Of a stretch of 43,799 nucleotides of DNA, positions 1 to 40,367 are shown piece by piece. Both the position numbers and the translations under genes were made by a program. Source of the DNA: a virus (taxonomy: Duplodnaviria > Caudoviricetes). Each line of letters begins with the position of its first letter. Within the stretch, counting starts at the first letter, position 1. The notes below the pieces were generated by a model that worked only from the letters and a program-made list of their open reading frames with translations, did not search any database and was not told the DNA's origin. Location of the stretch: the IMG/VR virus record IMGVR_UViG_3300016476_000200, positions 1 through 43,799 of that record; one strand, given 5' to 3'.

Positions 1-113
1 CGGGCTTCGTCCTCCCCGCAAGGTAGGCACGTACTGAATCCCGCCAAGACCCTGCGCGGATCGACTGGGGTGTACATTCCATGCATGACGCATGATCGGC
101 AAAAGTTAGTCAT
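1..113 (-). CDS. Partial (3'-truncated) small C4 zinc-finger protein, DksA/TraR-like Zn finger
   Basis: Not in the ORF track. ATG at 113 with GGAGG Shine-Dalgarno (119-123). It reads MTNFCRSCVMHGMYTPVDPRRVLAGFSTCLPCGEDEA..., a CxxC-x20-CxxC pattern, and runs off the window edge. Confidence 0.75.
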   Translation of the reverse strand, partial: MTNFCRSCVMHGMYTPVDPRRVLAGFSTCLPCGEDEA

Positions 114-124
114 CCAAGCCTCCT

Positions 125-141
125 TCCTGACGATGTCAGGA
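125..141. repeat. Palindrome box 1, TCCTGAC-GAT-GTCAGGA
   Basis: Perfect 7-bp arms; abuts the SD of the Zn-finger gene. Confidence 0.95.
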
Positions 142-249
142 CTATCGTTGATACAACTAAACACCCACGCGGTCTCGGGATTGCCAAGACCGCTAGGCTG
201 CTCACTCGCTCATCGCGGCTCACAACTTTGTAGGCAGATACTCGGAGTC

Positions 250-266
250 TCCTGACAATGTCAGGA
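250..266. repeat. Palindrome box 2, TCCTGAC-AAT-GTCAGGA
   Basis: Perfect arms, extending to 249-267. Confidence 0.95.
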
Positions 267-570
267 GTCACACTCCTACCGCTGCCGGACATACATTGCC
301 TGTCCGTACCGGCTGTGGATCGCGGGTCAAGATTCGTCAGGAATCACATAGCGGTTAGGCTTGTCAGTCAGTTATACAACTGATCCCCGTTGCCCTTATT
401 TTGCACCGCCCCGACAAATCGACTTGTCACCTAGGCGATCCTATGTGCAGTCTCGTACTGCACCACGACTCCGATTGATACTCGAAGCACCGCTGTTTGC
501 CAGACAGCGTCACGGCTTTGCCACCGCGCCTTCACCTACTATCGGCTTACGACTTGTAGGATCGTTGTTG

Positions 571-587
571 TCCTGACGGTGTCAGGA
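571..587. repeat. Palindrome box 3, TCCTGAC-GGT-GTCAGGA
   Basis: Perfect arms; about 40 nt downstream of the predicted start of the promoter at 633-661. Confidence 0.95.
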
Positions 588-632
588 CTAGCGGGAGGGG
601 TCGTCTCCAACCGAATTCCCACTATAGACTAT

Positions 633-661
633 ATTATAACAAATGTAGCCTTATAAGTCAA
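633..661 (-). promoter_or_regulatory. Strong sigma70-type early promoter
   Basis: Minus strand: TTGACT (661-656), 17 bp, TATAAT (638-633). Confidence 0.85.
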
Positions 662-719
662 GTAATAAGCAAATTATTTTGCTTGGTGCGGATGTGGTGC
701 AGGTGTGGTTTATACGTTG

Positions 720-736
720 TCCTGACAATATCAGGA
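720..736. repeat. Palindrome box 4, TCCTGAC-AAT-ATCAGGA (one mismatch)
   Basis: One mismatch to the consensus; upstream of the promoter and at the left edge of the origin-like block. Confidence 0.9.
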
Positions 737-765
737 AATGCGCGGTTTTTCGGCAGCGTACACGC

Positions 766-1177
766 TAAGTTATTGATTAGGTTGGGGAAAAATGGAAAGT
801 TGTAATATCTTGTACGCTTTGTACGCAAAATGAAAGTTGCAATAAGGTACAAGATAATGCAAGTTTTGGGAAATGTGGCGTGTGCTAAGTTATTGATTTT
901 ATTATTATTTATTTATAAGAAGAAGAAGAAGAATAGAGAAAAAAATGGATTTGTACGCTTGTACGCTGTTTTTTGAGAGAGGACGGCCGGTAAAAAATTT
1001 TCCAAGTTTTTGAAAAAATTTTGCACTTGCCGAAGAAGACAAACTGGCTCCTCCGTCCCCTAGGTGCGAACAAGCGTACAAGCGTACAAATCGACCCTTT
1101 TCCCTTTAGAATCAAAGGCTTGGCGTGTTCCCGTCAACTTAAGTGTGAGTACAAGCCAAAAATGTAAGTCATTGATT
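766..1177. promoter_or_regulatory. Four IHF-consensus sites (WATCAANNNNTTR)
   Basis: 766-778 and 886-898 (reverse complement AATCAATAACTTA), 1110-1122 (AATCAAAGGCTTG), 1165-1177 (reverse complement AATCAATGACTTA). All four match the consensus exactly. Confidence 0.75.
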
Positions 1178-1231
1178 TTTAAGGAAACGCGAAAAATTTT
1201 GTACGCTATTGCAACTTTCAAATTACAACTT
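766..1231. other. Putative replication origin (or packaging/terminus control) region
   Basis: AT-rich and non-coding. Perfect 20-bp inverted repeat at 948-967 / 1073-1092 (GATTTGTACGCTTGTACGCT); outer imperfect inverted repeat at about 797-852 / 1199-1231; multiple TGTACGC iterons; AT tract and (GAA)n run at about 895-946. Confidence 0.6.
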
Positions 1232-1238
1232 AGCCCAA

Positions 1239-1435
1239 GGGCTAGGGCTAGAAAACTGGTATCGCGTCATTTAAACAATCCAAATCTGATCCTGACACCG
1301 TCAGGACACGAGACAAAGTAAGCATGGGCTGTAACTTGTACATGGGCTAGGGCTAAGGCTTTGGGCTTGGGCTTAGGCTTGGCCTAGCAAGAACTGGTCT
1401 CATCCTATAGAACTGGTATCCGTGGAACTGGCTTC
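1239..1435. repeat. Degenerate GGGCT(A/T) hexamer repeats and AACTGGYNTC repeats
   Basis: GGGCTAGGGCTAG at 1239-1251; GGGCTAGGGCTAAGGCTTTGGGCTTGGGCTTAGGCTT at 1344-1380; AACTGGTATC, AACTGGTCTC or AACTGGCTTC at 1254, 1392, 1411 and 1426. Confidence 0.8.
1290..1306. repeat. Palindrome box 5, TCCTGAC-ACC-GTCAGGA
   Basis: Perfect arms; at the right edge of the origin-like block. Confidence 0.95.
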
Positions 1436-1450
1436 GCGGAGCGCAGACGC

Positions 1451-1485
1451 AAAAAAGCCCCGCCAAGCATGAGCCTGACGGGGCT
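1451..1485 (-). terminator. Rho-independent terminator of the 275-aa/micropeptide operon
   Basis: Minus strand AGCCCCGTCAGGC-TCAT-GCTTGGCGGGGC followed by TTTTTT. Confidence 0.85.
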
Positions 1486-1489
1486 GTGG

Positions 1490-1528
1490 TTAGAACGGGA
1501 ATTCCAACTGTTCGGGATCAGCGCGCAT
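1490..1528 (-). CDS. 12-aa micropeptide MRADPEQLEFPF with a beta-clamp-binding-like motif
   Basis: Strong SD GGAGGT (1538-1533), ATG at 1528, TAA at 1492-1490, immediately followed by the terminator. Below the ORF-track cutoff. Confidence 0.65.
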   Translation of the reverse strand: MRADPEQLEFPF

Positions 1529-1555
1529 AGCGACCTCCGTTGATGTTATAGATGA

Positions 1556-1575
1556 GGGGCGGCTCGCGCCGCCCC
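1556..1575 (-). other. GC-rich GNRA-tetraloop hairpin between the 275-aa gene and the micropeptide
   Basis: GGGGCGGC-GCGA-GCCGCCCC on the minus strand with no U-tract; possible stabilising or processing stem. Confidence 0.6.
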
Positions 1576-1580
1576 CGTAG

Positions 1581-1597
1581 TCCTGACAATGTCAGGA
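1581..1597. repeat. Palindrome box 6, TCCTGAC-AAT-GTCAGGA
   Basis: Perfect arms; contains the TGA stop of the 275-aa gene. Confidence 0.95.
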
Positions 1598-2419
1598 ACC
1601 CGCCCGATCAGCCGCCGCGATGATCTCGTCAGCCAGAGCAGGATCGAACGCCGCTTCCAACATGATGGAGCAGAGCGCCGACCATTGATCCTCGGACACG
1701 ACTGAATCAGCGCCGTTTTCCTTGGCGTACCGCGCTCGCTTCTTGGTTCCCGCCTTGTGCAGACCGTTCAGCAGATCGGCGAAATCCTGTTTCGCACCAC
1801 CCGCGCGACCCGTCGCGTCAGTCTTCCAACCACGCGAGAGCGCCTGATCGACGTCATTCTTGATCCAATCGCGCATGCCCTGACCTTTGCCATCCGGACG
1901 GCAACCAGCCATAGTGCCGCGCATCCAAGCCTTGACACCGTTCGGCTTTTCAGCGACCGACGCAAGAGCCTTGAGATCGACGCCGAGCGCGAAGGCCGCC
2001 GTGAAAATGTGGTTCGCAGCCGGAGCATCCTTGATCGGAACCCACTTCCGCTGCAGCGACGACCACATACGCACCGGCAGGAAATTGTCGTCATTCCCGA
2101 CTTGGTGCACCTCGACCGAATAGTGCTCGCGAGTCTTGGCCGACTCGGTAGCCTTGGCATGCAGCACCGCATGCAGAGCCTTACCAACCTCGGACTCCCG
2201 ATCGAACACCTCGACCCCGTCGCGCTTGATCACCGGCACACCCGCCGCGAGGCACAAATCAGCAAACGCCGCGCGGAATGACTCGGTATCGTTCGCCGTC
2301 GAAATCTGAACGTCGATGGCCTGAACCGCGACCGCTTGCGCCTTGGCAAGAACTTCGCCCGCGAGAGCAGGATTGACCGACTTGGAAACAGCGACAGCGA
2401 CCTTGTTTGACTTTGCCAT
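1592..2419 (-). CDS. Early hypothetical protein (275 aa)
   Basis: Long Ala-rich ORF with GGAG SD, its own promoter and a downstream terminator. No family recognised. Confidence 0.85.
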   Translation of the reverse strand: MAKSNKVAVAVSKSVNPALAGEVLAKAQAVAVQAIDVQISTANDTESFRAAFADLCLAAGVPVIKRDGVEVFDRESEVGKALHAVLHAKATESAKTREHYSVEVHQVGNDDNFLPVRMWSSLQRKWVPIKDAPAANHIFTAAFALGVDLKALASVAEKPNGVKAWMRGTMAGCRPDGKGQGMRDWIKNDVDQALSRGWKTDATGRAGGAKQDFADLLNGLHKAGTKKRARYAKENGADSVVSEDQWSALCSIMLEAAFDPALADEIIAAADRAGS

Positions 2420-2447
2420 GATATGTATATCTCCACAGATGATGTAT

Positions 2448-2464
2448 TCCTGACATTGTCAGGA
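2448..2464. repeat. Palindrome box 7, TCCTGAC-ATT-GTCAGGA
   Basis: Perfect arms; between the promoter and the SD of the 275-aa gene. Confidence 0.95.
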
Positions 2465-2493: not shown

Positions 2494-2522
2494 ATTATAC
2501 CACTTCTCTGGTACAATGTCCA
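2494..2522 (-). promoter_or_regulatory. Sigma70-type early promoter with extended -10
   Basis: Minus strand: TGGACA (2522-2517), 17 bp, TATAAT (2499-2494) preceded by TGG. Confidence 0.8.
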
Positions 2523-4905: not shown

Positions 4906-7446
4906 ATGGCCGTCGATAAAAGTTTGATGCAGGCCCCTCTGGGTTTGGAAGCTCTCGCGGAGGAAGAACCCGCGATTGAGATCATGGTTGAAGACCCGGA
5001 GAGCATGGCTATCGGTATTGATGGCATGGTCATCGAGATGGTTAAAGATGAGCCTCGCGCTGAGGACTTCAACGCCAATCTTGCCGACTTCATGGGCGAG
5101 AACGAGTTGCAGAGTCTTGCCTCGGAACTCATTGGAAGCTACGAGCAAGATCTCTCAAGCCGCAAAGACTGGCTGGATACCTACGTTAAAGGTCTAAAGA
5201 TTCTGGGCATTCGGTATGAGGATCGCACCGAACCGTGGCCGGGTGCGTGTGGTGTGTTCCACCCGCTCTTGATGGAGAGTGCGGTCAAGTTCCAGTCTGA
5301 GACCATCATGGAGACTTTCCCCGCGATGGGGCCGGTCAAGGCCAAGATCATTGGCAAGGAGACTCCGGAGAAGCGTGACTCTGCGGTTCGTGTCGCTGAT
5401 GACATGAATTACCAACTGACCGAGGTGATGAAGGAGTACCGCCCGGAGCACGAGCGTCTGCTTCTCTCGTTGGCGCTTGCAGGTAACGCCTTTAAGAAGG
5501 TGTACTTCGACCCGTCCTTGGGTCGGCAGATTGCGGTCTACATTCCAGCCGAAGACATCATCGTGCCATACGGCGCGGCGAATCTGGACACGGCAGAGCG
5601 TGTTACGCACCGGATGCGTAAGACGAAGAACGAGGTTAAGAAGCTTCAGTACGCAGGGTTCTACCGAGACGTGGATCTTGGTGAGCCGATGCGAGTGATG
5701 GACGAGGTTGAGAAACAGAAGGCTGAAGATCAGGGCTTCTCGGCAAGCATGGACGACCGGTTCCAGTTGCTAGAGATGCACGTCAATATTGATTTGCCGG
5801 GCTATCCCGACGTTGATAAAGATAACAACGAGACCGGGATTGCACTCCCTTATGTCGTAACAATTGAGAAGGGGACGGGGACGATTCTTGCGATTCGCAG
5901 GAACTGGAGAGAAGACGATGAACTTAAAGAAAAGCGACAGCACTTTGTCCATTACGGATATATCCCCGGATTTGGATTTTACTACTTCGGCCTTATTCAC
6001 CTTATCGGGGGACATAGTAAAGCTGCAACGTCCCTCCTTCGACAACTTGTCGATGCAGGAACTCTCTCAAATCTCCCCGGAGGACTTAAGTCTAGAGGAC
6101 TACGAATTAAGGGAGACGATACTCCGATTGCACCGGGAGAGTTCCGAGACGTAGATATCCCAAGCGGCGCTATCCGCGACAACATCCTCCCGCTTCCGTA
6201 CAAGGAGCCAAGTCAAACGCTGTCTGCGTTGATGGATCGCATCGTCGAAGAAGGTCGCCGCTTTGCTGCGGTGTCTGACCTCAAGATCTCGGACATGTCC
6301 TCGCAGGCTCCGGTCGGTACAACGCTTGCCGTGTTGGAGCGCGTGCTGAAGGTCATGACGGCGGTGCAGGCTCGCGTGTACTACGCGATGAAGCAGGAGT
6401 TCAAACTCCTTGCCGCGATCATTCGTGATAACACGCCAGAAGAGTATTCGTACGAGCCGGAAATCGGTGATCGCAAAGCGAAAAAGGCTGACTACGATGA
6501 TGTCGATGTCATCCCGGTCAGTGATCCCAATGCGTCAACGATGTCGCAGAAGGTTGTGCAGTACCAAGCGGTTCTCCAACTTAGCCAGACCGCACCGCAA
6601 CTCTACGACTTGCCATACCTGCATCGTCAGATGATTGAGACGTTGGGCGTTAAGAATGCGGATCGGATTGTGCCGTTGCCGCAAGACGCCAAGCCGCGAG
6701 ATCCCATCACTGAGAACATGGATGTGATGACGGGCAAACCTGTCAAAGCCTTCATGTATCAGGATCACGAAGCGCACATCGCTGTTCACATGGCGCTGGG
6801 ACAAGATCCGAAGATTGCCCAGCAGATTGGTCAGAACCCGATGGCGCAGCAGATTACGGCTGCACTTCAGGCACACATCATGGAGCACACGGCGTTCCAG
6901 TATCGCCGCGAGATCGAGAAACAGCTTGGCGCGGCGCTCCCGCCCTTGCCGCAAGACGACCGAGAAGAGTACGACCTGCCGCCTGAGTTTGAGGCGCAGT
7001 TGTCGCAGTTGGTAGCAGCCGCCGCTGCACGAGTTCTTCAGAAGGATCAGGCCGAAGCACAGATGCAGCAGGCCGCACAGCAGCAACAAGACCCGCTTGT
7101 GCAGATGCAGATGATGGACTTGCAGATCAAGCAGCTTCAGGCGCAGACCAAGGCGCAGCAGTTGCAAATGGAAGCCCAGATCCAACAGGCCGAAGTACAG
7201 CGCAAACAGCAGAAAGATGTGTTGGATGCCGCTGCCAAAGCCGACGAGTTGGAGCTTCGCAAGGCAGAAATTTCTGGTCGTCAGCAGCTTGAGGCAGCGC
7301 GTCTCGGCGTGGACATCCAGAAGGACAAGGCTGCGTTGTCTGCCAAACAGCAGATCGAAGGAGTACGTCTCGGCCTAGAAATAGGCAAGGCGCGGGATGA
7401 ATCAGACATGAGGAAACAGGCTACACCGCCTGCATCTGAGGAGTAA
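4906..7446 (+). CDS. Portal protein (P22-like, long Q-rich coiled-coil barrel)
   Basis: 846 aa directly after terL; portal-like N-terminal region and long Q/A-rich helical C-terminus. Confidence 0.85.
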   Translation: MAVDKSLMQAPLGLEALAEEEPAIEIMVEDPESMAIGIDGMVIEMVKDEPRAEDFNANLADFMGENELQSLASELIGSYEQDLSSRKDWLDTYVKGLKILGIRYEDRTEPWPGACGVFHPLLMESAVKFQSETIMETFPAMGPVKAKIIGKETPEKRDSAVRVADDMNYQLTEVMKEYRPEHERLLLSLALAGNAFKKVYFDPSLGRQIAVYIPAEDIIVPYGAANLDTAERVTHRMRKTKNEVKKLQYAGFYRDVDLGEPMRVMDEVEKQKAEDQGFSASMDDRFQLLEMHVNIDLPGYPDVDKDNNETGIALPYVVTIEKGTGTILAIRRNWREDDELKEKRQHFVHYGYIPGFGFYYFGLIHLIGGHSKAATSLLRQLVDAGTLSNLPGGLKSRGLRIKGDDTPIAPGEFRDVDIPSGAIRDNILPLPYKEPSQTLSALMDRIVEEGRRFAAVSDLKISDMSSQAPVGTTLAVLERVLKVMTAVQARVYYAMKQEFKLLAAIIRDNTPEEYSYEPEIGDRKAKKADYDDVDVIPVSDPNASTMSQKVVQYQAVLQLSQTAPQLYDLPYLHRQMIETLGVKNADRIVPLPQDAKPRDPITENMDVMTGKPVKAFMYQDHEAHIAVHMALGQDPKIAQQIGQNPMAQQITAALQAHIMEHTAFQYRREIEKQLGAALPPLPQDDREEYDLPPEFEAQLSQLVAAAAARVLQKDQAEAQMQQAAQQQQDPLVQMQMMDLQIKQLQAQTKAQQLQMEAQIQQAEVQRKQQKDVLDAAAKADELELRKAEISGRQQLEAARLGVDIQKDKAALSAKQQIEGVRLGLEIGKARDESDMRKQATPPASEE

Positions 7447-7449
7447 TAA

Positions 7450-7638
7450 ATGTCCTACTCAAACGCTCTGGAATACCTTGAATCAAAACTCAAGGACGAG
7501 CGCACATTAATTGTAGATAACCTCGTTCAAGGCAAATTGGACGAAGGCGAATACAAACGCCTATGCGGGGCGTTACAGGGTCTCGACCTCGCAATGGGAT
7601 ACATCAAAGACCTTGCAAAGCGAATAGAGGAAGCATGA
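7450..7638 (+). CDS. Small hypothetical protein (62 aa) between portal and GroES
   Basis: GAGGAG SD, helical composition, ATGA overlap with the next gene. Confidence 0.75.
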   Translation: MSYSNALEYLESKLKDERTLIVDNLVQGKLDEGEYKRLCGALQGLDLAMGYIKDLAKRIEEA

Positions 7639-8012
7639 GTAACATCAATGTTGAGAGGACACAGGAAGAAGCCAAGAAAGCCAGCCTACTGCCCGAACCC
7701 CGAGGATATCGAATCCTTTGTGCTGTACCGCACGTGGAGGAAGAGTTTGAGGGAGGCATTATTAAGGCCGACGACACCAAGCGCGTTGAAGAGCAGACCA
7801 CTGTAGTTCTGTTCGTCATCAAGTTGGGCGATCTTTGCTACAAGGACGAGACTCGGTTTCCAACCGGACCTTGGTGTAAAGAGGGCGACTTTGTCCTTAC
7901 CCGTCCGTACACGGGGACTCGCGTGGTCATCCACGGCCGAGAGTTCCGCATCATCAACGACGACAATGTGGAAGCGGTGGTCGATGACCCCCGTGGCATC
8001 CGTCGCGCATAA
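7635..8012 (+). CDS. GroES/Cpn10-like co-chaperonin
   Basis: Start reassigned to ATG 7635 (GAGG SD). Motifs PxGYRIL, GGII mobile-loop segment, KEGDFV, and FRIINDDNVEAVV C-terminus typical of Cpn10. Confidence 0.85.
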   Translation: MSNINVERTQEEAKKASLLPEPRGYRILCAVPHVEEEFEGGIIKADDTKRVEEQTTVVLFVIKLGDLCYKDETRFPTGPWCKEGDFVLTRPYTGTRVVIHGREFRIINDDNVEAVVDDPRGIRRA

Positions 8013-33665: not shown

Positions 33666-36600
33666 GTGGCTACACTTAATGATATTGCTTCCGCTTTGCG
33701 TAAGGCTGATGCAGCGGGAGACACTGAAGCCGCTAGACGTTTAGCCAGAGCATACCGGGACCAAAAGTCACAACTGCTCAGTATGTTTGAACCCCCCAAG
33801 GAACAGGCGGGGTTCCTTGGTTCTTTTAGAGAAGCCGTTACTACACTTGGTTTGACAGACGAAGCGGCAGAATATGCTGCTAATCCAACGGCAGAAAACC
33901 GCGAAGCGTTTCTTAAAAAGGCTGAGTCCAAGTACAAATCTGTAGGTGGATTTGGCAAGGGCGAGAATTGGGAAGCCTTCAAAGAACTGCTTGGCGGTTC
34001 GTTAGGTGCGCTTGTAGCTCCGATTGGCGCTGCCGTTGTTGGCGGTGGTTTGCCCGGTTTTGCTGCGGCTAGTGCCGGTCAGTACGGTATCCAGAACCTA
34101 CGCCGTCAGGCTGAAGAACAGCAGGCTGCTGCCGAAGCAGGCGAGGTTGTACCAGAACTATCTTTAGGTAAGGCCGCTGCCGCTGCGGGCGCTTCCACTG
34201 CACTTGACGTTGTTCCCGGTGCGTTGATTCTTAAGGGACTTAGTAAGTTCCCCATCGCTAGAGGCTTGTTGTCTGAAGACGCTACGTCTAGCAAAGCCGC
34301 ACAAGTTTTAATTGATGCATTCAAAAACGAGAATCTGTCCCTTAAAGGCAACATAGTTAAGGGCGTCGGTCTTGGCGTTGCATTTGAAGTTCCACAAGAA
34401 ATTGCTCAGCAAGCCTTGGAACGATGGCAGGCAGGTCTGCCGTTAGACGATGCAGAAGCAAAGGAAGAATTTAAACAGGCCGCAATCGGCGCTGCCGTAC
34501 TTGGCGGTGGATTTGGTGCGATTGGTGGGGCGGGTACGTATCGTGGCGTGCAGGCAGAAAAAGCCAAAGCAGCCGCTGAGCAAGAGCGCGAACGTACAGA
34601 AATTGAGCAGAGTATTTTTGGTGCGCCACTACCTTCTGATGTTGGTGTACCCGCTGACTTCTATGCAGCCGATGAAGAACGTCGTGGGCGTGAGTTAGAA
34701 GAAAGCATCTTTGGGGCTATTCCAACTGATACCGGCATTCCTGCTGATATGTTGGAGACTGAGGCTCAACGAGAAGCCCGTCTTGAGCGCGAAGCAATTC
34801 AGGCTTATGAACGTGAGCAACTAGAAAAAGCCGAGCCGGAAGAATTACTGCGTGGTCAATACAGTGCTCGTACGTTGCGTGAAGCAGCGGAGGCAGAAGC
34901 ACTTGCACCTCGTGAAGAAGACGAGGGGGCTCCATACATACCACCTGCACAAGTTACGGATGAGGGAGAAGTTGAAGCTGTAGCTCCGCCCGCTCCGTTT
35001 ACTGAAGGAGTCATGGAAGGTCTGGGTGCACCTACAGAAGGTGGTATCCCTGCGGAAATGCTCGCGCCTACTCCTCGTGAAATTGCGCTTGAAGTTATTA
35101 AAACGACTCCTACTATTAAGGCAGTTGCAGACGCCACGGGATTGAATCAACCTCAAGCCGCTGGATTGATGCGGCAATTTGTTGACGAGGGTCTGCTTGA
35201 GCGAAAAGGCAGTAAATTTAAAACCGTTACTCCCGCACCTGCCGTTGAGCCGGAGGCTACCGATGTACCAAGCGCAACAGTTGCTACTACAGAGACTGAC
35301 GGTGGAGCAGGTCGAGGAGGCGCTGATCTGTTTACATTGGGACCGCCAGCCGGAGAACTTGGTGCTCCGCCAACTGGAGGCGCAGGACTGGCTGCTACTG
35401 GCGACGTTACTGAACGGGTTGATGACCGAGAAAGAGATGTATCCCCTACACTAGAGGCTGATCTTGAAAGCCTTGGTCTTGAAAGTGCACCGACCGAAAC
35501 CGGTCTACCACCTCGTAAACTTGAAGCCTACCTTGCTGAAAGGCAGAAAGTCCGTGATCTAAAAGATCGTGCCGTTGCCTTCATCCGTGAGACTGGTAAG
35601 GGTTCAGCCACAGAACTTCAGGCGGCGCTTGGTATCCCACTTACCCAAGCCAAGGCACTGCGTAGTGCGTTACTTGGTAGCGGTCAGGTAGTACAGAAGA
35701 CCAACGTCAAAGCTGCAAAAACTGCTGGTCGCAGTTATTTCGTCGTTGAAGGGGATTACACACCATCTGGTAAGTTTGCTCCCCGCGAGGCTGCTGCAAC
35801 TGAAGCACGCCAAGAACCTGTTGCAGAGACAGGTCTTGAAGACCTTGGTCTTGAAGGCGCACCCGCCGAGACTGGTCTGCCCCCCGAGATGCTCGACAGA
35901 TACTTTGCTGAGCAACGTCTTGAAGAGGCGCGGCAGCGTGCCACAGGTAAATTGCGTGGCGAAGGTGTTGAGTCCGAGGCTGAACGTATTCAGCGTGAGG
36001 CTGATAAGGCTGCTGAAATAACGGACGCCATTCCTCGTGAACTGCCTCCCACCTTGAAGCCTGAGATTGGTAAAGGGGAGTATGGTCTACGCTACAAGGA
36101 CGCGCAGGGCAACACTGTTTACCGTGCGTATGAGTCAACGGGGCAGCGTAGCGAGGCGCGTGCCAATTTAGCCAAGGAAGGCAATAAAGACTTTGGCACG
36201 TTCTCTCGTATGGCAGAAATTGCCAAGTTTGAACTTGATTACATAAAGCGTCAGGCGATGCCCGCCATGACCAAACCGCAAGTTCAACGTGCTGTCCAGA
36301 ACATTAAAGCCGGCATGTCTAAGCTTAAAACACAGCTTGGATTGTTTACGGAAGAAGAAGCCCCAACACCTAAAAAAGCGGTGCCTAAACGCGTTTCAAG
36401 AAAAGAAGTAGTTGATTACGCCAAGAATGTCATAACGCTTGCCCGCGACTCAGGAAAGCTCAAGAAATACGCCAAGCGTATTCAGGGGGTGCTTGATTCT
36501 GTTCAGCGCGGTGACACTGACCTACGCACAGACTACAAAACGCTTCAACGTATTGAAGATAGTATTACTAAGGCTGAAGCACAGTTGGGCGAAGCCACTC

Positions 36601-39600
36601 AAGCAAGGCTTGAAGAAGATATTGATACGGACGTTAGAGATACCGTAGACGATGAAGTAAGCGTTAAAGAAAGAGATGACTCTTACGAACCTCTTGACTT
36701 TCGTAAAACAAAGTACACACGATTTAAAAAGATCAAAAGCCTTACGAAAGGCTTGAAGGCTGACACTGTCAGGTCGTTGATTGGCAAAATCACGGCTGGC
36801 TGGAAGAACCCGCCTAATTTTATTGTTGTACAGTCGTATCTTGATCTACCGCAAGAACTTGATCCCGAGGCTGCCGCAGACAGCATGGGCTTTGCCTCTG
36901 GTAACGATGTGTACATTATTGCAGACAACATTCGTCTGCCGTCTGATCTAAAAGCCACGGTATTCCACGAATCACTTGGTCACTACGGTCTTGAGCAGTT
37001 GTTTGGGGAGAGGCTTCTCCAGACGATGCTGGACATTTACAACACGAACAATCGTGTTCGCGCCGATGCCGATGCGTGGCTTGAAGAAAACCCGGACGTG
37101 TATCCGGAGAGCGAGTTCACGCAGGATGAACGCAGGGCGCTGGCAGCGGAAGAAGTCTTTGCCGAGATGTCAGAAGGTGGCCCGATTGCCAACTCGCAGT
37201 ATCGCGCTGCGTTCAACCGTGTTGCTGCCTTAATCCGTAAGTTTGCCCGTGCCTTGAGTCGACTGGTTGGCCGGGACGTTTCTTACAGCAACCGCGAAAT
37301 CCAAGACATCATCGCGCAGGCTCACAACAAGGTCATTACTGGTAAGACCCGCCTCATACCGCGTTACAACAATATCCGGTACATGAAGAAGTGGTACGAC
37401 CGCACGTTGACCAATGCAATGGACTACGCGCAAAAAGCGCCGGAAGCCTCGCGAGAACTTCTGACCGGTAACGTCGACGCGCTTAGTAACATTCCTAACT
37501 CACTGCGTAACGCAAAGCTGGCTACGTTCTCAATGCATCACATTATGCAGTTATTTGAGAAGTATGCCCCTGCGTTCCGTGCCCTGAACAATTTGATTGA
37601 AAGAAAAGCCTACGACTCCACAAAGGAGATGGTGGAGTTCACCAAGCAGGCAAGTAAGTATCGACAAGTCCTGCGTAACAACAGTCAGTACGTAGACGAG
37701 TTCAACAAGGTCGCGCACCTGATTAACCTCTCTCAGGCCCCAGTGCTTGCGGAACAGGTAAATGCAAATGGTGACTTTGAGCGTTATGTACCAAACGTAG
37801 CAGCGCAACGGATGCGTAATATCCCTGCGAATAGCGCGGCGTACAACGCGCTTACGCCTGATGACAAGGTACTACACGAAGCGGTTAATAGGTTTTATGC
37901 ACTGCCGACTGATGTTCAGCAGGTGATTGCTGACGTATACACTGATTACAGGAATTACAGTGACAATGCGTTCAAAATTAAACTGACGCAGTTAATGAAC
38001 AGATTGCCTGCCAATATTGTTGCAGGCATCAAAGCAAACTTCCAAAACAACCGATTGAAGTTCTATCTGCCCCTGCCACGCGAGGGTATGTACAAACTTG
38101 TCTATTTGGATAACAACGGCATACGAGTTAGCCAGTTGTTTGATAGCTTGGCTGGGCGAGATAGCGCAGAACGACAGGTGCGTAGTCAGGGCATGACTGT
38201 CCTTGATGAACCCAAGGTGCTACGCCAGAGAAACTACAGCGATTCAAATCTGCCGCCGGGATTGCTCAAGGAACTTCTTGAAAATGTGCAGGACTCCTTG
38301 ACCAGATCAGGTGTAGCCCCTGCCGATATTGATAAGGCAAAAGAAACGGTCTTTGATACGTTTGTTGAGTTCATGCCCGGTGCTTACGGTAACGATCTGC
38401 GTCAAGAGATTAGTTCACGTAAGACTTTCATGCTCAACGGCGTGATGTATTACGGGCGGCTTGGTTACGATGAGGATGTGATTGGTGCGTACGAAAAACG
38501 CATCCCCGGCATCATTTATCAAATCAACAATCTCAAGTACACGATGCCCTTTGAGAAGGTCAGGAAACTGATCAAGGAGCAGTTGACCACATATCGTGAT
38601 AACAAGGGTGCACCTGCCTATGCAGGATTGCCGGATCTAGATGATCCGTACCTTGAGTCACTGCGTGAGGACTTGGATTCTCGAATCTCGTTTGCCAAGA
38701 CGTTGCAGCAATACTCGCCGTATGTGTACACAATTGGTAAAGCCAATTACATCTACAGTATTGCGCTAAACATATCTTCAGCCATGATCAATACGACCAT
38801 CATTCCTATGATGGCTTGGCCTGCGCTTGCGGCTAAATATGGCGTTGTTAATGCTACACGTGCTGTGGGGCAGGCAATGCAGATGTTCTTCAAGCACTCG
38901 TACCGTGATCCGCAGACCGGTAGGTTGAGCTTCGACTACAAGCGTTTGGCTGATATGCCCGCCTCGTTTGGTGGCGACAATATGCCTGCTGCTTACGCGC
39001 AGACGGCGCACGGTAGAGAGTTCAACCGCTTCTTCCGTACGTTGGTGGCTAGATCTGTGGTGGGAACTGCTGCTGAACAAGAACTGATTCAGGCAGAGAA
39101 CATTACTGTTCCGGGTTACGAAGGCTTGAGTGCCAAAGCAAATTTGCTGATGAGCTATGTATTCCGTAGTTCTGAGCGTATGAACCGTGAAGTCACAGCG
39201 CTCGCTGCCTACATGCTGGCTCGTAACATTGACGTAAATGGGCAGGCATTTGATGCTAACAGGCAGGGAGTAAGTGTAGGCAAGGCGTCGGAAGAAGCGA
39301 TCCGTCTTAACTACGATATCAACGGTGCTACCACGCCTGAGACGAACAGCCGTTTGTACCAGACAGACATCGGCCGTATTGCTCTTACGTTCAGAACGCA
39401 CGCTCTGAACATGATCTTGAATCTCGCCTTTACGTTTAATCAGGCGGTCGAAAAGATCAACGCGAACCAGCCGAACGTGGCTGAGCGTAAACTTTTAAAA
39501 TCAATCGCTCGTAGAAAATTGCTGTACATCTTCGGTTCGACGTACATGCTGGCGGGCATAAAGGGTTTGCCGCTTTTTGGCGCTGCCGAGGTGCTCGCGT

Positions 39601-40367
39601 CTCTGCTGATGGGCGATGATGACGAGCCGTATGATCTTGAGCAGGAAGTGTTGGATTCGGTTGGCACGTTGGGATTGAACGGTCCTGTTAACGAGTTGTT
39701 GAATATTGATATCGCTTCTAGAACTGGTTTCTATGGCCTTCTGTGGCGCGATGACCCGAAGCGTTTGGCGGAGGTGGGCGTGCCTGTGTATGTTCTGGAG
39801 CGTTTGGCGGGACCGACTTACGGACTGGTTGAAGCAGCGCGTCGTGGATTCAATGACTTTGCGGAAGGGGATTTGCAACGCGGGTTTGAGGCCATACTGC
39901 CTGCTCCGTTACGTAACGGATTGAAGGGTATGCGGTATGGTATAGAAGGTGCTTTGACGAGGGACGGGCTTCCCATCGTTGACGATGTCAATGCGTATAA
40001 CTCAATGATGCAGGTGTTGGGTTTTGCCCCGGCAGATTTGGCGGTGGCACAGGCGCAGAGAGGTGCGACCTATCAGGTTAGCGAGAAGTTAAAGAACCGA
40101 CGTACTTCTCTTTTGACGAATCTTTATGCTGCACGAAAGGCGGACAATCCAGAGGCAATGGAGAAGGCTCTGGAGGATATTCGTTCATTCAACGGTTCTA
40201 ATCCCTCCTACGCAATTACATCCGACTCCATTACCAAGTCGTTTAACGAACGCGAACGTAGGGCCAGAGAAGCAATCATGGGTATTTACCAACCCAGAAA
40301 CTTGCGTTACGCCACGTCTGAGTACGTAGCGGATCTGGATGCAGAGGATGAGGATGCCTTCTTCTAG
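33666..40367 (+). CDS. Large polyvalent ejection protein (2233 aa) with wHTH, zincin-like HExxGH and PLxRFG-like motifs
   Basis: N-terminal Gly/Ala membrane-type segments; HESLGHYGL at 36966; YLPLPREG near 38070; two wHTH-like segments; QLGLF at 36333. Confidence 0.8.
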   Translation: MATLNDIASALRKADAAGDTEAARRLARAYRDQKSQLLSMFEPPKEQAGFLGSFREAVTTLGLTDEAAEYAANPTAENREAFLKKAESKYKSVGGFGKGENWEAFKELLGGSLGALVAPIGAAVVGGGLPGFAAASAGQYGIQNLRRQAEEQQAAAEAGEVVPELSLGKAAAAAGASTALDVVPGALILKGLSKFPIARGLLSEDATSSKAAQVLIDAFKNENLSLKGNIVKGVGLGVAFEVPQEIAQQALERWQAGLPLDDAEAKEEFKQAAIGAAVLGGGFGAIGGAGTYRGVQAEKAKAAAEQERERTEIEQSIFGAPLPSDVGVPADFYAADEERRGRELEESIFGAIPTDTGIPADMLETEAQREARLEREAIQAYEREQLEKAEPEELLRGQYSARTLREAAEAEALAPREEDEGAPYIPPAQVTDEGEVEAVAPPAPFTEGVMEGLGAPTEGGIPAEMLAPTPREIALEVIKTTPTIKAVADATGLNQPQAAGLMRQFVDEGLLERKGSKFKTVTPAPAVEPEATDVPSATVATTETDGGAGRGGADLFTLGPPAGELGAPPTGGAGLAATGDVTERVDDRERDVSPTLEADLESLGLESAPTETGLPPRKLEAYLAERQKVRDLKDRAVAFIRETGKGSATELQAALGIPLTQAKALRSALLGSGQVVQKTNVKAAKTAGRSYFVVEGDYTPSGKFAPREAAATEARQEPVAETGLEDLGLEGAPAETGLPPEMLDRYFAEQRLEEARQRATGKLRGEGVESEAERIQREADKAAEITDAIPRELPPTLKPEIGKGEYGLRYKDAQGNTVYRAYESTGQRSEARANLAKEGNKDFGTFSRMAEIAKFELDYIKRQAMPAMTKPQVQRAVQNIKAGMSKLKTQLGLFTEEEAPTPKKAVPKRVSRKEVVDYAKNVITLARDSGKLKKYAKRIQGVLDSVQRGDTDLRTDYKTLQRIEDSITKAEAQLGEATQARLEEDIDTDVRDTVDDEVSVKERDDSYEPLDFRKTKYTRFKKIKSLTKGLKADTVRSLIGKITAGWKNPPNFIVVQSYLDLPQELDPEAAADSMGFASGNDVYIIADNIRLPSDLKATVFHESLGHYGLEQLFGERLLQTMLDIYNTNNRVRADADAWLEENPDVYPESEFTQDERRALAAEEVFAEMSEGGPIANSQYRAAFNRVAALIRKFARALSRLVGRDVSYSNREIQDIIAQAHNKVITGKTRLIPRYNNIRYMKKWYDRTLTNAMDYAQKAPEASRELLTGNVDALSNIPNSLRNAKLATFSMHHIMQLFEKYAPAFRALNNLIERKAYDSTKEMVEFTKQASKYRQVLRNNSQYVDEFNKVAHLINLSQAPVLAEQVNANGDFERYVPNVAAQRMRNIPANSAAYNALTPDDKVLHEAVNRFYALPTDVQQVIADVYTDYRNYSDNAFKIKLTQLMNRLPANIVAGIKANFQNNRLKFYLPLPREGMYKLVYLDNNGIRVSQLFDSLAGRDSAERQVRSQGMTVLDEPKVLRQRNYSDSNLPPGLLKELLENVQDSLTRSGVAPADIDKAKETVFDTFVEFMPGAYGNDLRQEISSRKTFMLNGVMYYGRLGYDEDVIGAYEKRIPGIIYQINNLKYTMPFEKVRKLIKEQLTTYRDNKGAPAYAGLPDLDDPYLESLREDLDSRISFAKTLQQYSPYVYTIGKANYIYSIALNISSAMINTTIIPMMAWPALAAKYGVVNATRAVGQAMQMFFKHSYRDPQTGRLSFDYKRLADMPASFGGDNMPAAYAQTAHGREFNRFFRTLVARSVVGTAAEQELIQAENITVPGYEGLSAKANLLMSYVFRSSERMNREVTALAAYMLARNIDVNGQAFDANRQGVSVGKASEEAIRLNYDINGATTPETNSRLYQTDIGRIALTFRTHALNMILNLAFTFNQAVEKINANQPNVAERKLLKSIARRKLLYIFGSTYMLAGIKGLPLFGAAEVLASLLMGDDDEPYDLEQEVLDSVGTLGLNGPVNELLNIDIASRTGFYGLLWRDDPKRLAEVGVPVYVLERLAGPTYGLVEAARRGFNDFAEGDLQRGFEAILPAPLRNGLKGMRYGIEGALTRDGLPIVDDVNAYNSMMQVLGFAPADLAVAQAQRGATYQVSEKLKNRRTSLLTNLYAARKADNPEAMEKALEDIRSFNGSNPSYAITSDSITKSFNERERRAREAIMGIYQPRNLRYATSEYVADLDAEDEDAFF
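35263..35454 (+). CDS. Putative overprinted gene (63 aa, +1 frame) inside the 2233-aa gene
   Basis: GGAGG SD at 35252-35256, 6 nt before the ATG; Leu-rich helical product ending in LH; the host frame here is a low-complexity linker. Confidence 0.6.
   Translation: MYQAQQLLLQRLTVEQVEEALICLHWDRQPENLVLRQLEAQDWLLLATLLNGLMTEKEMYPLH

Follow-up and report, generated by a model that had tools for sequence, protein, structure and literature searches.

We found that a 17-bp palindrome, TCCTGAC-NNN-GTCAGGA (the box), which occurs seven times in the virus record IMGVR_UViG_3300016476_000200, gives way to other palindromes in closely related phages, and that the palindrome changes together with the family of the gene that comes first in the boxed region, here an open reading frame (ORF) of 275 amino acids (aa). 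We propose, with a probability of about 0.55, that the boxes form an operator network resembling the stoperators of mycobacteriophages and the conserved inverted repeats (CIRs) of phage phiC31, bound by the 275-aa protein. Recognition of the boxes at the DNA level by a dimer is very likely, the 275-aa protein is probably the binder, and repression or roadblocking is a somewhat favoured account of what the boxes do. The window, i.e. the whole stretch of 43,799 nucleotides (nt) analysed here, is a linear whole virus record with an estimated completeness of 69%. Because family scans of its proteins found a terminase, portal, major head protein, SU10-type adaptors, a DarB-like protein and a primase/helicase, the virus would be a podophage, distant kin of HTVC023P and MinM2; its TerL is ~50% identical to those of HTVC023P, HTVC027P and DSL-LC04 and 43% identical to that of MinM2. 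Transcription of the boxed region runs away from terS from sigma70-like promoters, and we take the region to be an early operon.

Box arrays and first-gene families

Six of the seven boxes were exact and one had a single mismatch, which the sequence-only reading of this DNA had not flagged while placing all seven copies correctly. Sites at up to one mismatch averaged 0.03 over 200 shuffles and never exceeded one, and the next-best matches in the window had three mismatches. Bare 11-bp cores at 36761 and 39980 lie far from the boxes and lack their flanks. The positions described for the boxes were likewise correct: one copy adjoins a Shine-Dalgarno (SD) sequence, one provides the stop codon of the 275-aa gene, others are promoter-proximal and two bracket an origin-like block. 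The apparent confinement of the boxes to a 2.5-kb early region, in contrast, reflects the contig end, as in relatives the array extends beyond the left end of the window over ~9-11 kb of the presumed early operon. The genes found there encode the 298-aa protein, an AAA ATPase, a DUF2201/VWA protein and proteins of ~345 and ~119 aa, and the operon ends with a VRR-NUC gene; in nine phages 61 boxes precede this gene and 2 lie in the ~207 kb beyond. Viral contigs scanned for the exact box gave 106 loci, 98 of which merged into 56 contigs. All 24 contigs with at least two boxes came from this phage clade (19 match the window directly and the other five carry genes of the same operon).

Eighty TerL relatives (88-99% identical) were collected and 33 of them examined for palindromes. 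Sister phages whose TerL is 89-93% identical use other palindromes at matching positions, in arrays of CGTATTA-N2, CGTATCA-N2, CCTTACA-N4, CGTTACA-N3, CATAACA-N3, TCTGAC-N3, CGTGTCT-N2, CGAATCA-N2 and TTCA-N8, and more distant contigs carry arrays of CTGAGA-N2 and GTGACA-N2. Phages of the TCCTGAC and CGTATTA classes share a non-coding leader, where corresponding positions hold the box of the respective class: four of the five CGTATTA phages aligned carry their class's box at the position of box 2, and CGTATTA phages likewise carry it at that of box 3. No array was present in six box-less sisters with at least 8 kb of sequence, in which no palindrome with 5-bp arms exceeded three copies, nor was one seen in HTVC023P (1-22 kb), DSL-LC04 (10-45 kb) or Tunturi_3 (50-97.6 kb). 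In the box-less L178 and L168 a short palindrome overlaps the -10 hexamer of three promoters each, upstream of early genes, and in L140 a 500-nt stretch, lying about 7.6-8.1 kb upstream of terL, holds seven spaced copies of CATCGCAG. A literature search, mostly of open-access papers, found no description of these arrays.

To the palindrome classes we compared the first early genes, which usually have boxes on both sides, in 45 TerL loci with at least 1.3 kb upstream. Palindrome class tracks first-gene family. First genes of the 275-aa type (p275) occurred in nine loci with TGAC boxes, p202-type genes in eight loci with CGTATTA boxes (one imperfect), p180-type genes in three loci with CGTATCA or CGTGTCT boxes and p229-type genes in four loci with TTACA, ATAACA or GTATCA boxes; no such first gene was found in 16 of the 45 loci (L173 possibly truncated), including six with at least 8 kb and no array. 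In loci with several CGTATTA copies all first genes seen were p202, and all 24 loci of the 275-aa family have TCCTGAC..GTCAGGA arms, one of them with a 4-nt spacer. This last locus, L227, has its boxes at 5845-5862 and about 6575-6592, both with the 4-nt spacer, representing either a spacer variant or an assembly error.

Since the early arm as a whole tends to travel together, the discriminating case is G004, a CGTATCA phage. Compared with the CGTATTA phages L137 and L289, its 298-aa, AAA and VWA proteins are 84-85%, 85-86% and 75-76% identical, and its 345-aa and 119-aa genes also nest among CGTATTA phages, whereas its first gene is 22-28% identical to first genes of the CGTATTA class, within which identity is 44-99%. 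G004 thus looks like a natural swap in which the first gene and the box changed and five downstream genes did not.

G004 also bears on whether another phage protein (the 298-aa DUF3150-like, 345-aa or 119-aa protein, a 102-aa helix-turn-helix (HTH) protein, HTH102, or the primase) binds the boxes, with the first gene a regulated passenger. We consider this quite unlikely. Within the TCCTGAC class the 298-aa protein is 81-91% identical and HTH102 71-85%, compared with 38-49% and 50-59% outside it, and HTH102 has weak HTH matches in Pfam; however, the 298-aa, AAA, VWA, 345-aa and 119-aa genes were unchanged with the box in G004, a comparison that did not include the primase. The HTH protein that the sequence-only reading had named as a possible binder does not track the box: G026 and G004, of the CGTATTA and CGTATCA classes respectively, have the same helix, the helix varies among CGTATTA phages, and the protein is also present in the box-less G005. 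A 198-aa HTH-DUF3310 protein was also rejected, as it does not track the box.

Boxes within genes and the nature of the site

To characterize the site we used 118 boxes from 14 contigs, some of them from near-identical phages. The three central bases follow the pattern RNY in 96 of the 118, a tendency and not the universal rule that the seven window copies had suggested. Boxes occur every 0.1-2.3 kb, genes included, and the site is palindromic, not asymmetric, throughout. Within genes the box encodes Pro-Asp-x-Val-Arg. All 9 rows of the 298-aa gene use identical codons for it, as do all 10 rows of the AAA gene, whereas adjacent codons vary. Invariant columns of four- or sixfold degenerate amino acids seldom had identical codons (9 of 96 in the 298-aa gene and 18 of 123 in the AAA gene), and three of the 9 and three of the 18 were box codons. 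Because the intragenic codons are fixed against this low background, the nucleotide sequence of the intragenic boxes is, on codon evidence, under selection. At the equivalent position of its AAA gene, L172 has its own TCTGAC variant.

Such copies weigh on two alternatives that had been raised for the boxes. One holds that they are RNA hairpins acting as processing sites or translation gates; many boxes adjoin SD sequences, the centre bases are able to lengthen the stem in 85 of 118, and two of the boxes lie in or beside structured RNA. We nevertheless regard RNA hairpins as very unlikely, since the arms are fixed within a phage with no compensatory change, while the helices of the leader covary, 13 of the 15 one-mismatch boxes are not G-U compatible (2 of 15 are), and processing at intragenic copies would cut essential genes. 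On these grounds the boxes are better explained as DNA sites than as RNA stems. The other alternative, recombination sites that shuffle early gene cassettes, draws on small early genes that vary between boxes and on a first gene that is bracketed by them; it appears highly improbable in view of the conserved copies inside collinear genes and of the lack of a tyrosine recombinase or integrase (PF00589) in five of five relatives, one of them 98% complete, in a search that did not cover serine integrases or partition systems.

The likeness of the box to matS, the Escherichia coli MatP site, raised the further alternative that MatP or another host nucleoid factor binds it. According to PMC3116907, matS is a 13-bp site, GTGAC-RNY-GTCAC, and its 11-bp core is common to the box, as the sequence-only reading had correctly observed along with the differing flanks. 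Both are dispersed palindromes, some of them intragenic, and the L498 palindrome starts with GTGACA, though with an even spacer. The box, however, is 17 bp long with flanks CCTGAC..GTCAGG and is replaced in sister phages by unrelated palindromes; in all seven window copies TGAC is preceded by C and GTCA is followed by G, unlike in matS, of which the window holds no exact copy. In 596 Gb of bacterial genomes the 16-base form of the box was found in about 170 stretches against about 139 expected under uniform composition, i.e. at about chance level, and among the 80 matches listed of 120, 78 were single copies. Binding by MatP or another host factor is the least probable of the readings considered. 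The suggestion that the boxes are sites of a dimeric protein is supported in narrowed form, for a phage-encoded protein, most likely the 275-aa protein, and its host-factor version is not, given the flanks, the sister palindromes and the bacterial counts.

The first-gene protein and known dispersed-site systems

The 275-aa protein had no match in PHROGs, Pfam (E<=1), PDB sequences or cultured phages. AlphaFold models of this protein (predicted local distance difference test, pLDDT, 88; 82 sequences) and of a p202 member (pLDDT 91; 70 sequences) have a similar order of elements, with a helical N-domain carrying a small beta insert, a linker and a C-terminal helical pair. With either model Foldseek found no match at E<=0.001 in PDB or BFVD, and MatP was matched by neither in the fold searches. 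The best VIA Z scores were 5.6 for the C-terminal helices and 6.2 for a TetR-like regulator chain (residues 73-183, 98 aligned, root-mean-square deviation 3.9), both inside the background range of the tool. By hhalign, p202, p229 and p180 are mutually related (E 1e-5 to 6e-3), whereas p275 is not significantly linked to them, though it shares local motifs with the other first-gene families when aligned.

The closest parallels in organization are two phage repressor systems. The repressor c of Streptomyces phage phiC31 binds the CIRs. CIRs resemble the boxes in being palindromic, dispersed and multi-copy and in having a copy at or within the gene of the regulator; we counted 15, mostly intergenic and one inside the repressor gene. 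They differ in that phiC31 has an integrase and its sites are genome-wide, whereas the boxes of the nine phages above are limited to the early operon and no tyrosine integrase was found in the five relatives. PF25746, the phiC31 c family, was among the nearest Pfam-bearing clusters in the ESM Atlas for p275 and the p202 member (0.77 and 0.80), which we treat as a lead only. Homology to c was not significant: direct comparison with ten c-family proteins was negative (hhalign E 0.05-0.65, no Pfam match at E<=1), and the first-gene proteins had no significant sequence or profile similarity to phiC31 c. Cluster A mycobacteriophages (L5, Bxb1 and Trixie) have many repressor sites, the stoperators, most of which lie away from promoters and whose motifs change from one related phage to another along with the repressor (PMC6550527). 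The box motif similarly co-varies with the candidate repressor, the first-gene family, among related phages. Stoperators differ in being asymmetric, oriented and genome-wide sites of temperate phages, while the boxes are palindromic and clustered and their candidate binder matches no known family. By analogy, the box array may work like stoperators or CIRs; we do not assign it to either.

A comparable layout was found in the cultured Synechococcus phage MinM2 (OQ594354; L243 and L482), which has 25 copies of a different palindrome, GTTCA-NNN-TGAAC, most of them just upstream of SDs and 20 in the 30-65 kb half. Here too the first early gene has boxes on either side, and a DUF3150/MoxR/VWA trio is present; we found no paper describing the array. 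The boxed first gene, MM2_92, has a paralogue, MM2_72. MinM2, Pag-Yong1 and Pra-JY27 are three records with different stated hosts and the same size of 65,014 bp.

MinM2 is also relevant to the main rival of the operator network, in which the first-gene protein binds the boxes as an organiser, in the manner of parS/matS systems, to bridge, compact or shield early DNA or to recruit the 298-aa, AAA and VWA proteins. The dense spacing with intragenic copies, the 66 of 118 boxes with no SD and start codon within 45 nt, and the co-occurrence of boxes with the 298-aa/AAA/VWA trio, MinM2 included, would suit an organiser. We judge it unlikely, though, as the other 52 boxes directly precede an SD and start codon, 30 promoter-like hexamers were found 24-78 nt upstream of boxes, the first gene lies between boxes as autoregulated genes do, and Tunturi_3 has a 298-aa homologue with no such array in the part covered.

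Several observations weigh against the proposed operator network and its binder. G004 is the single event behind the swap argument, and near-identical phages are included in the 14-contig box sample. The 275-aa protein is 32-38% identical between subgroups with the same box, the single families p180 and p229 each pair with several different boxes, and CGTATCA half-sites were found with two first-gene families. The first gene of L153 has no 5' box and has boxes only downstream, and L145 and L175, both short contigs, show no box. The 275-aa protein has no DNA-binding fold recognisable in sequence and fold searches, is not basic (35 K+R, 34 D+E), and has no significant homology by hhalign to the other first-gene families. 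In MinM2, 5 of the 25 boxes lie in the 1-30 kb structural half, and the boxed first gene matches none of the first-gene profiles and is not detectably homologous. Finally, because no tyrosine integrase was found in the five relatives, a role in classical lysogeny is unsupported.

Layout of the boxed region and proposed control

The features of the boxed region are listed in the table. A GC-rich hairpin (about 1556-1575) comes after box 6. The half-site at 336-342 reported by the sequence-only reading is absent from the close relative L107 and is not conserved. Elsewhere in the window lie a GroES-like co-chaperonin gene (7563-8012) and the gene of a 2233-aa protein with a DarB-like C-terminal part (33666-40367).

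Table. Features of the boxed region; positions are those of the window.
Feature	Position	Strand	Remarks
Small Cys-rich ORF, 5' part (start at 113)	1..113	-	Truncated by contig end; operon goes on in relatives
Box 1	125..141	.	Exact; adjoins SD of the ORF starting at 113
Leader RNA, structured, non-coding	142..570	-	~430 nt; conserved; no Rfam match
Box 2	250..266	.	Exact; within a variable segment of the structured leader
Box 3	571..587	.	Exact; 45 nt past the P2 -10, right before the structured leader
Promoter P2, sigma70-like	633..661	-	11/12, extended -10; consensus match only
Box 4	720..736	.	Right arm ATCAGGA (one mismatch); the copies of relatives L107 and G019 are exact
AT-rich block, putative origin-like	737..1289	.	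Iteron-like repeats; independent of box class
Box 5	1290..1306	.	Exact; on the far side of the AT-rich block
Intrinsic-terminator-like site	1456..1485	-	Downstream of the 275-aa gene
Box 6	1581..1597	.	Exact; provides the TGA stop of the 275-aa ORF
275-aa ORF, first early gene	1592..2419	-	Candidate box-binding protein; no family or fold match
Box 7	2448..2464	.	Exact; 29 nt past the P1 -10, between P1 and the SD of the 275-aa ORF
Promoter P1, sigma70-like	2494..2522	-	11/12, extended -10; consensus match only

The leader has a folding z of -5.0, is conserved in both the TCCTGAC and CGTATTA classes and shows compensatory change in 39 of 81 predicted pairs (11 sequences), with no match in Rfam at E<=1. 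Homologues of ~430-550 nt without a long ORF were found in L107, L206, L307, L351, L137, L156, L259, L492, L277 and L315. The leader is possibly a new large phage non-coding RNA. The block between boxes 4 and 5 has 38% GC and eight iteron-like words. Joint control of this putative origin by the boxes, as proposed earlier, is unsupported, because the iteron-like block occurs in box-less sisters too and phages that share a box differ in its words. Origin-like blocks of the window, L133, L141, L142 and L146 carry 7-nt iteron-like words that are lineage-specific (TGTACGC, GGAACA, TGACACA).

In the operator network that we propose, the 275-aa protein would be made first among the early proteins and would dimerise. 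A dimer on the box at 2448 would limit its own synthesis by repressing its own promoter, and dimers on the boxes close to P2, on those ahead of ribosome-binding sites and on intragenic ones would damp early transcription. Such control could time the shut-off of early transcription or exclude superinfecting phages of the same class; with no tyrosine integrase among the five relatives, its purpose may be lytic timing, the exclusion of superinfecting phages or a non-integrated state. More tentatively, a new DNA-binding fold, made first on infection, might read a clade-specific palindrome across the early genome, and the rapid joint swapping of gene and palindrome might create immunity-like classes among near-identical, non-integrating podophages, that is, a repressor-operator code without an integrated prophage.

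If the proposal is correct, it would explain what a large family of uncharacterised phage proteins without a known fold does, and the sister phages would offer a natural table of protein-site pairs, with at least nine palindromes, for the study of change in DNA specificity. It would also extend control of the stoperator/CIR type to phages in which no integrase was detected; the cultured MinM2 group, having the same layout, permits a direct test.

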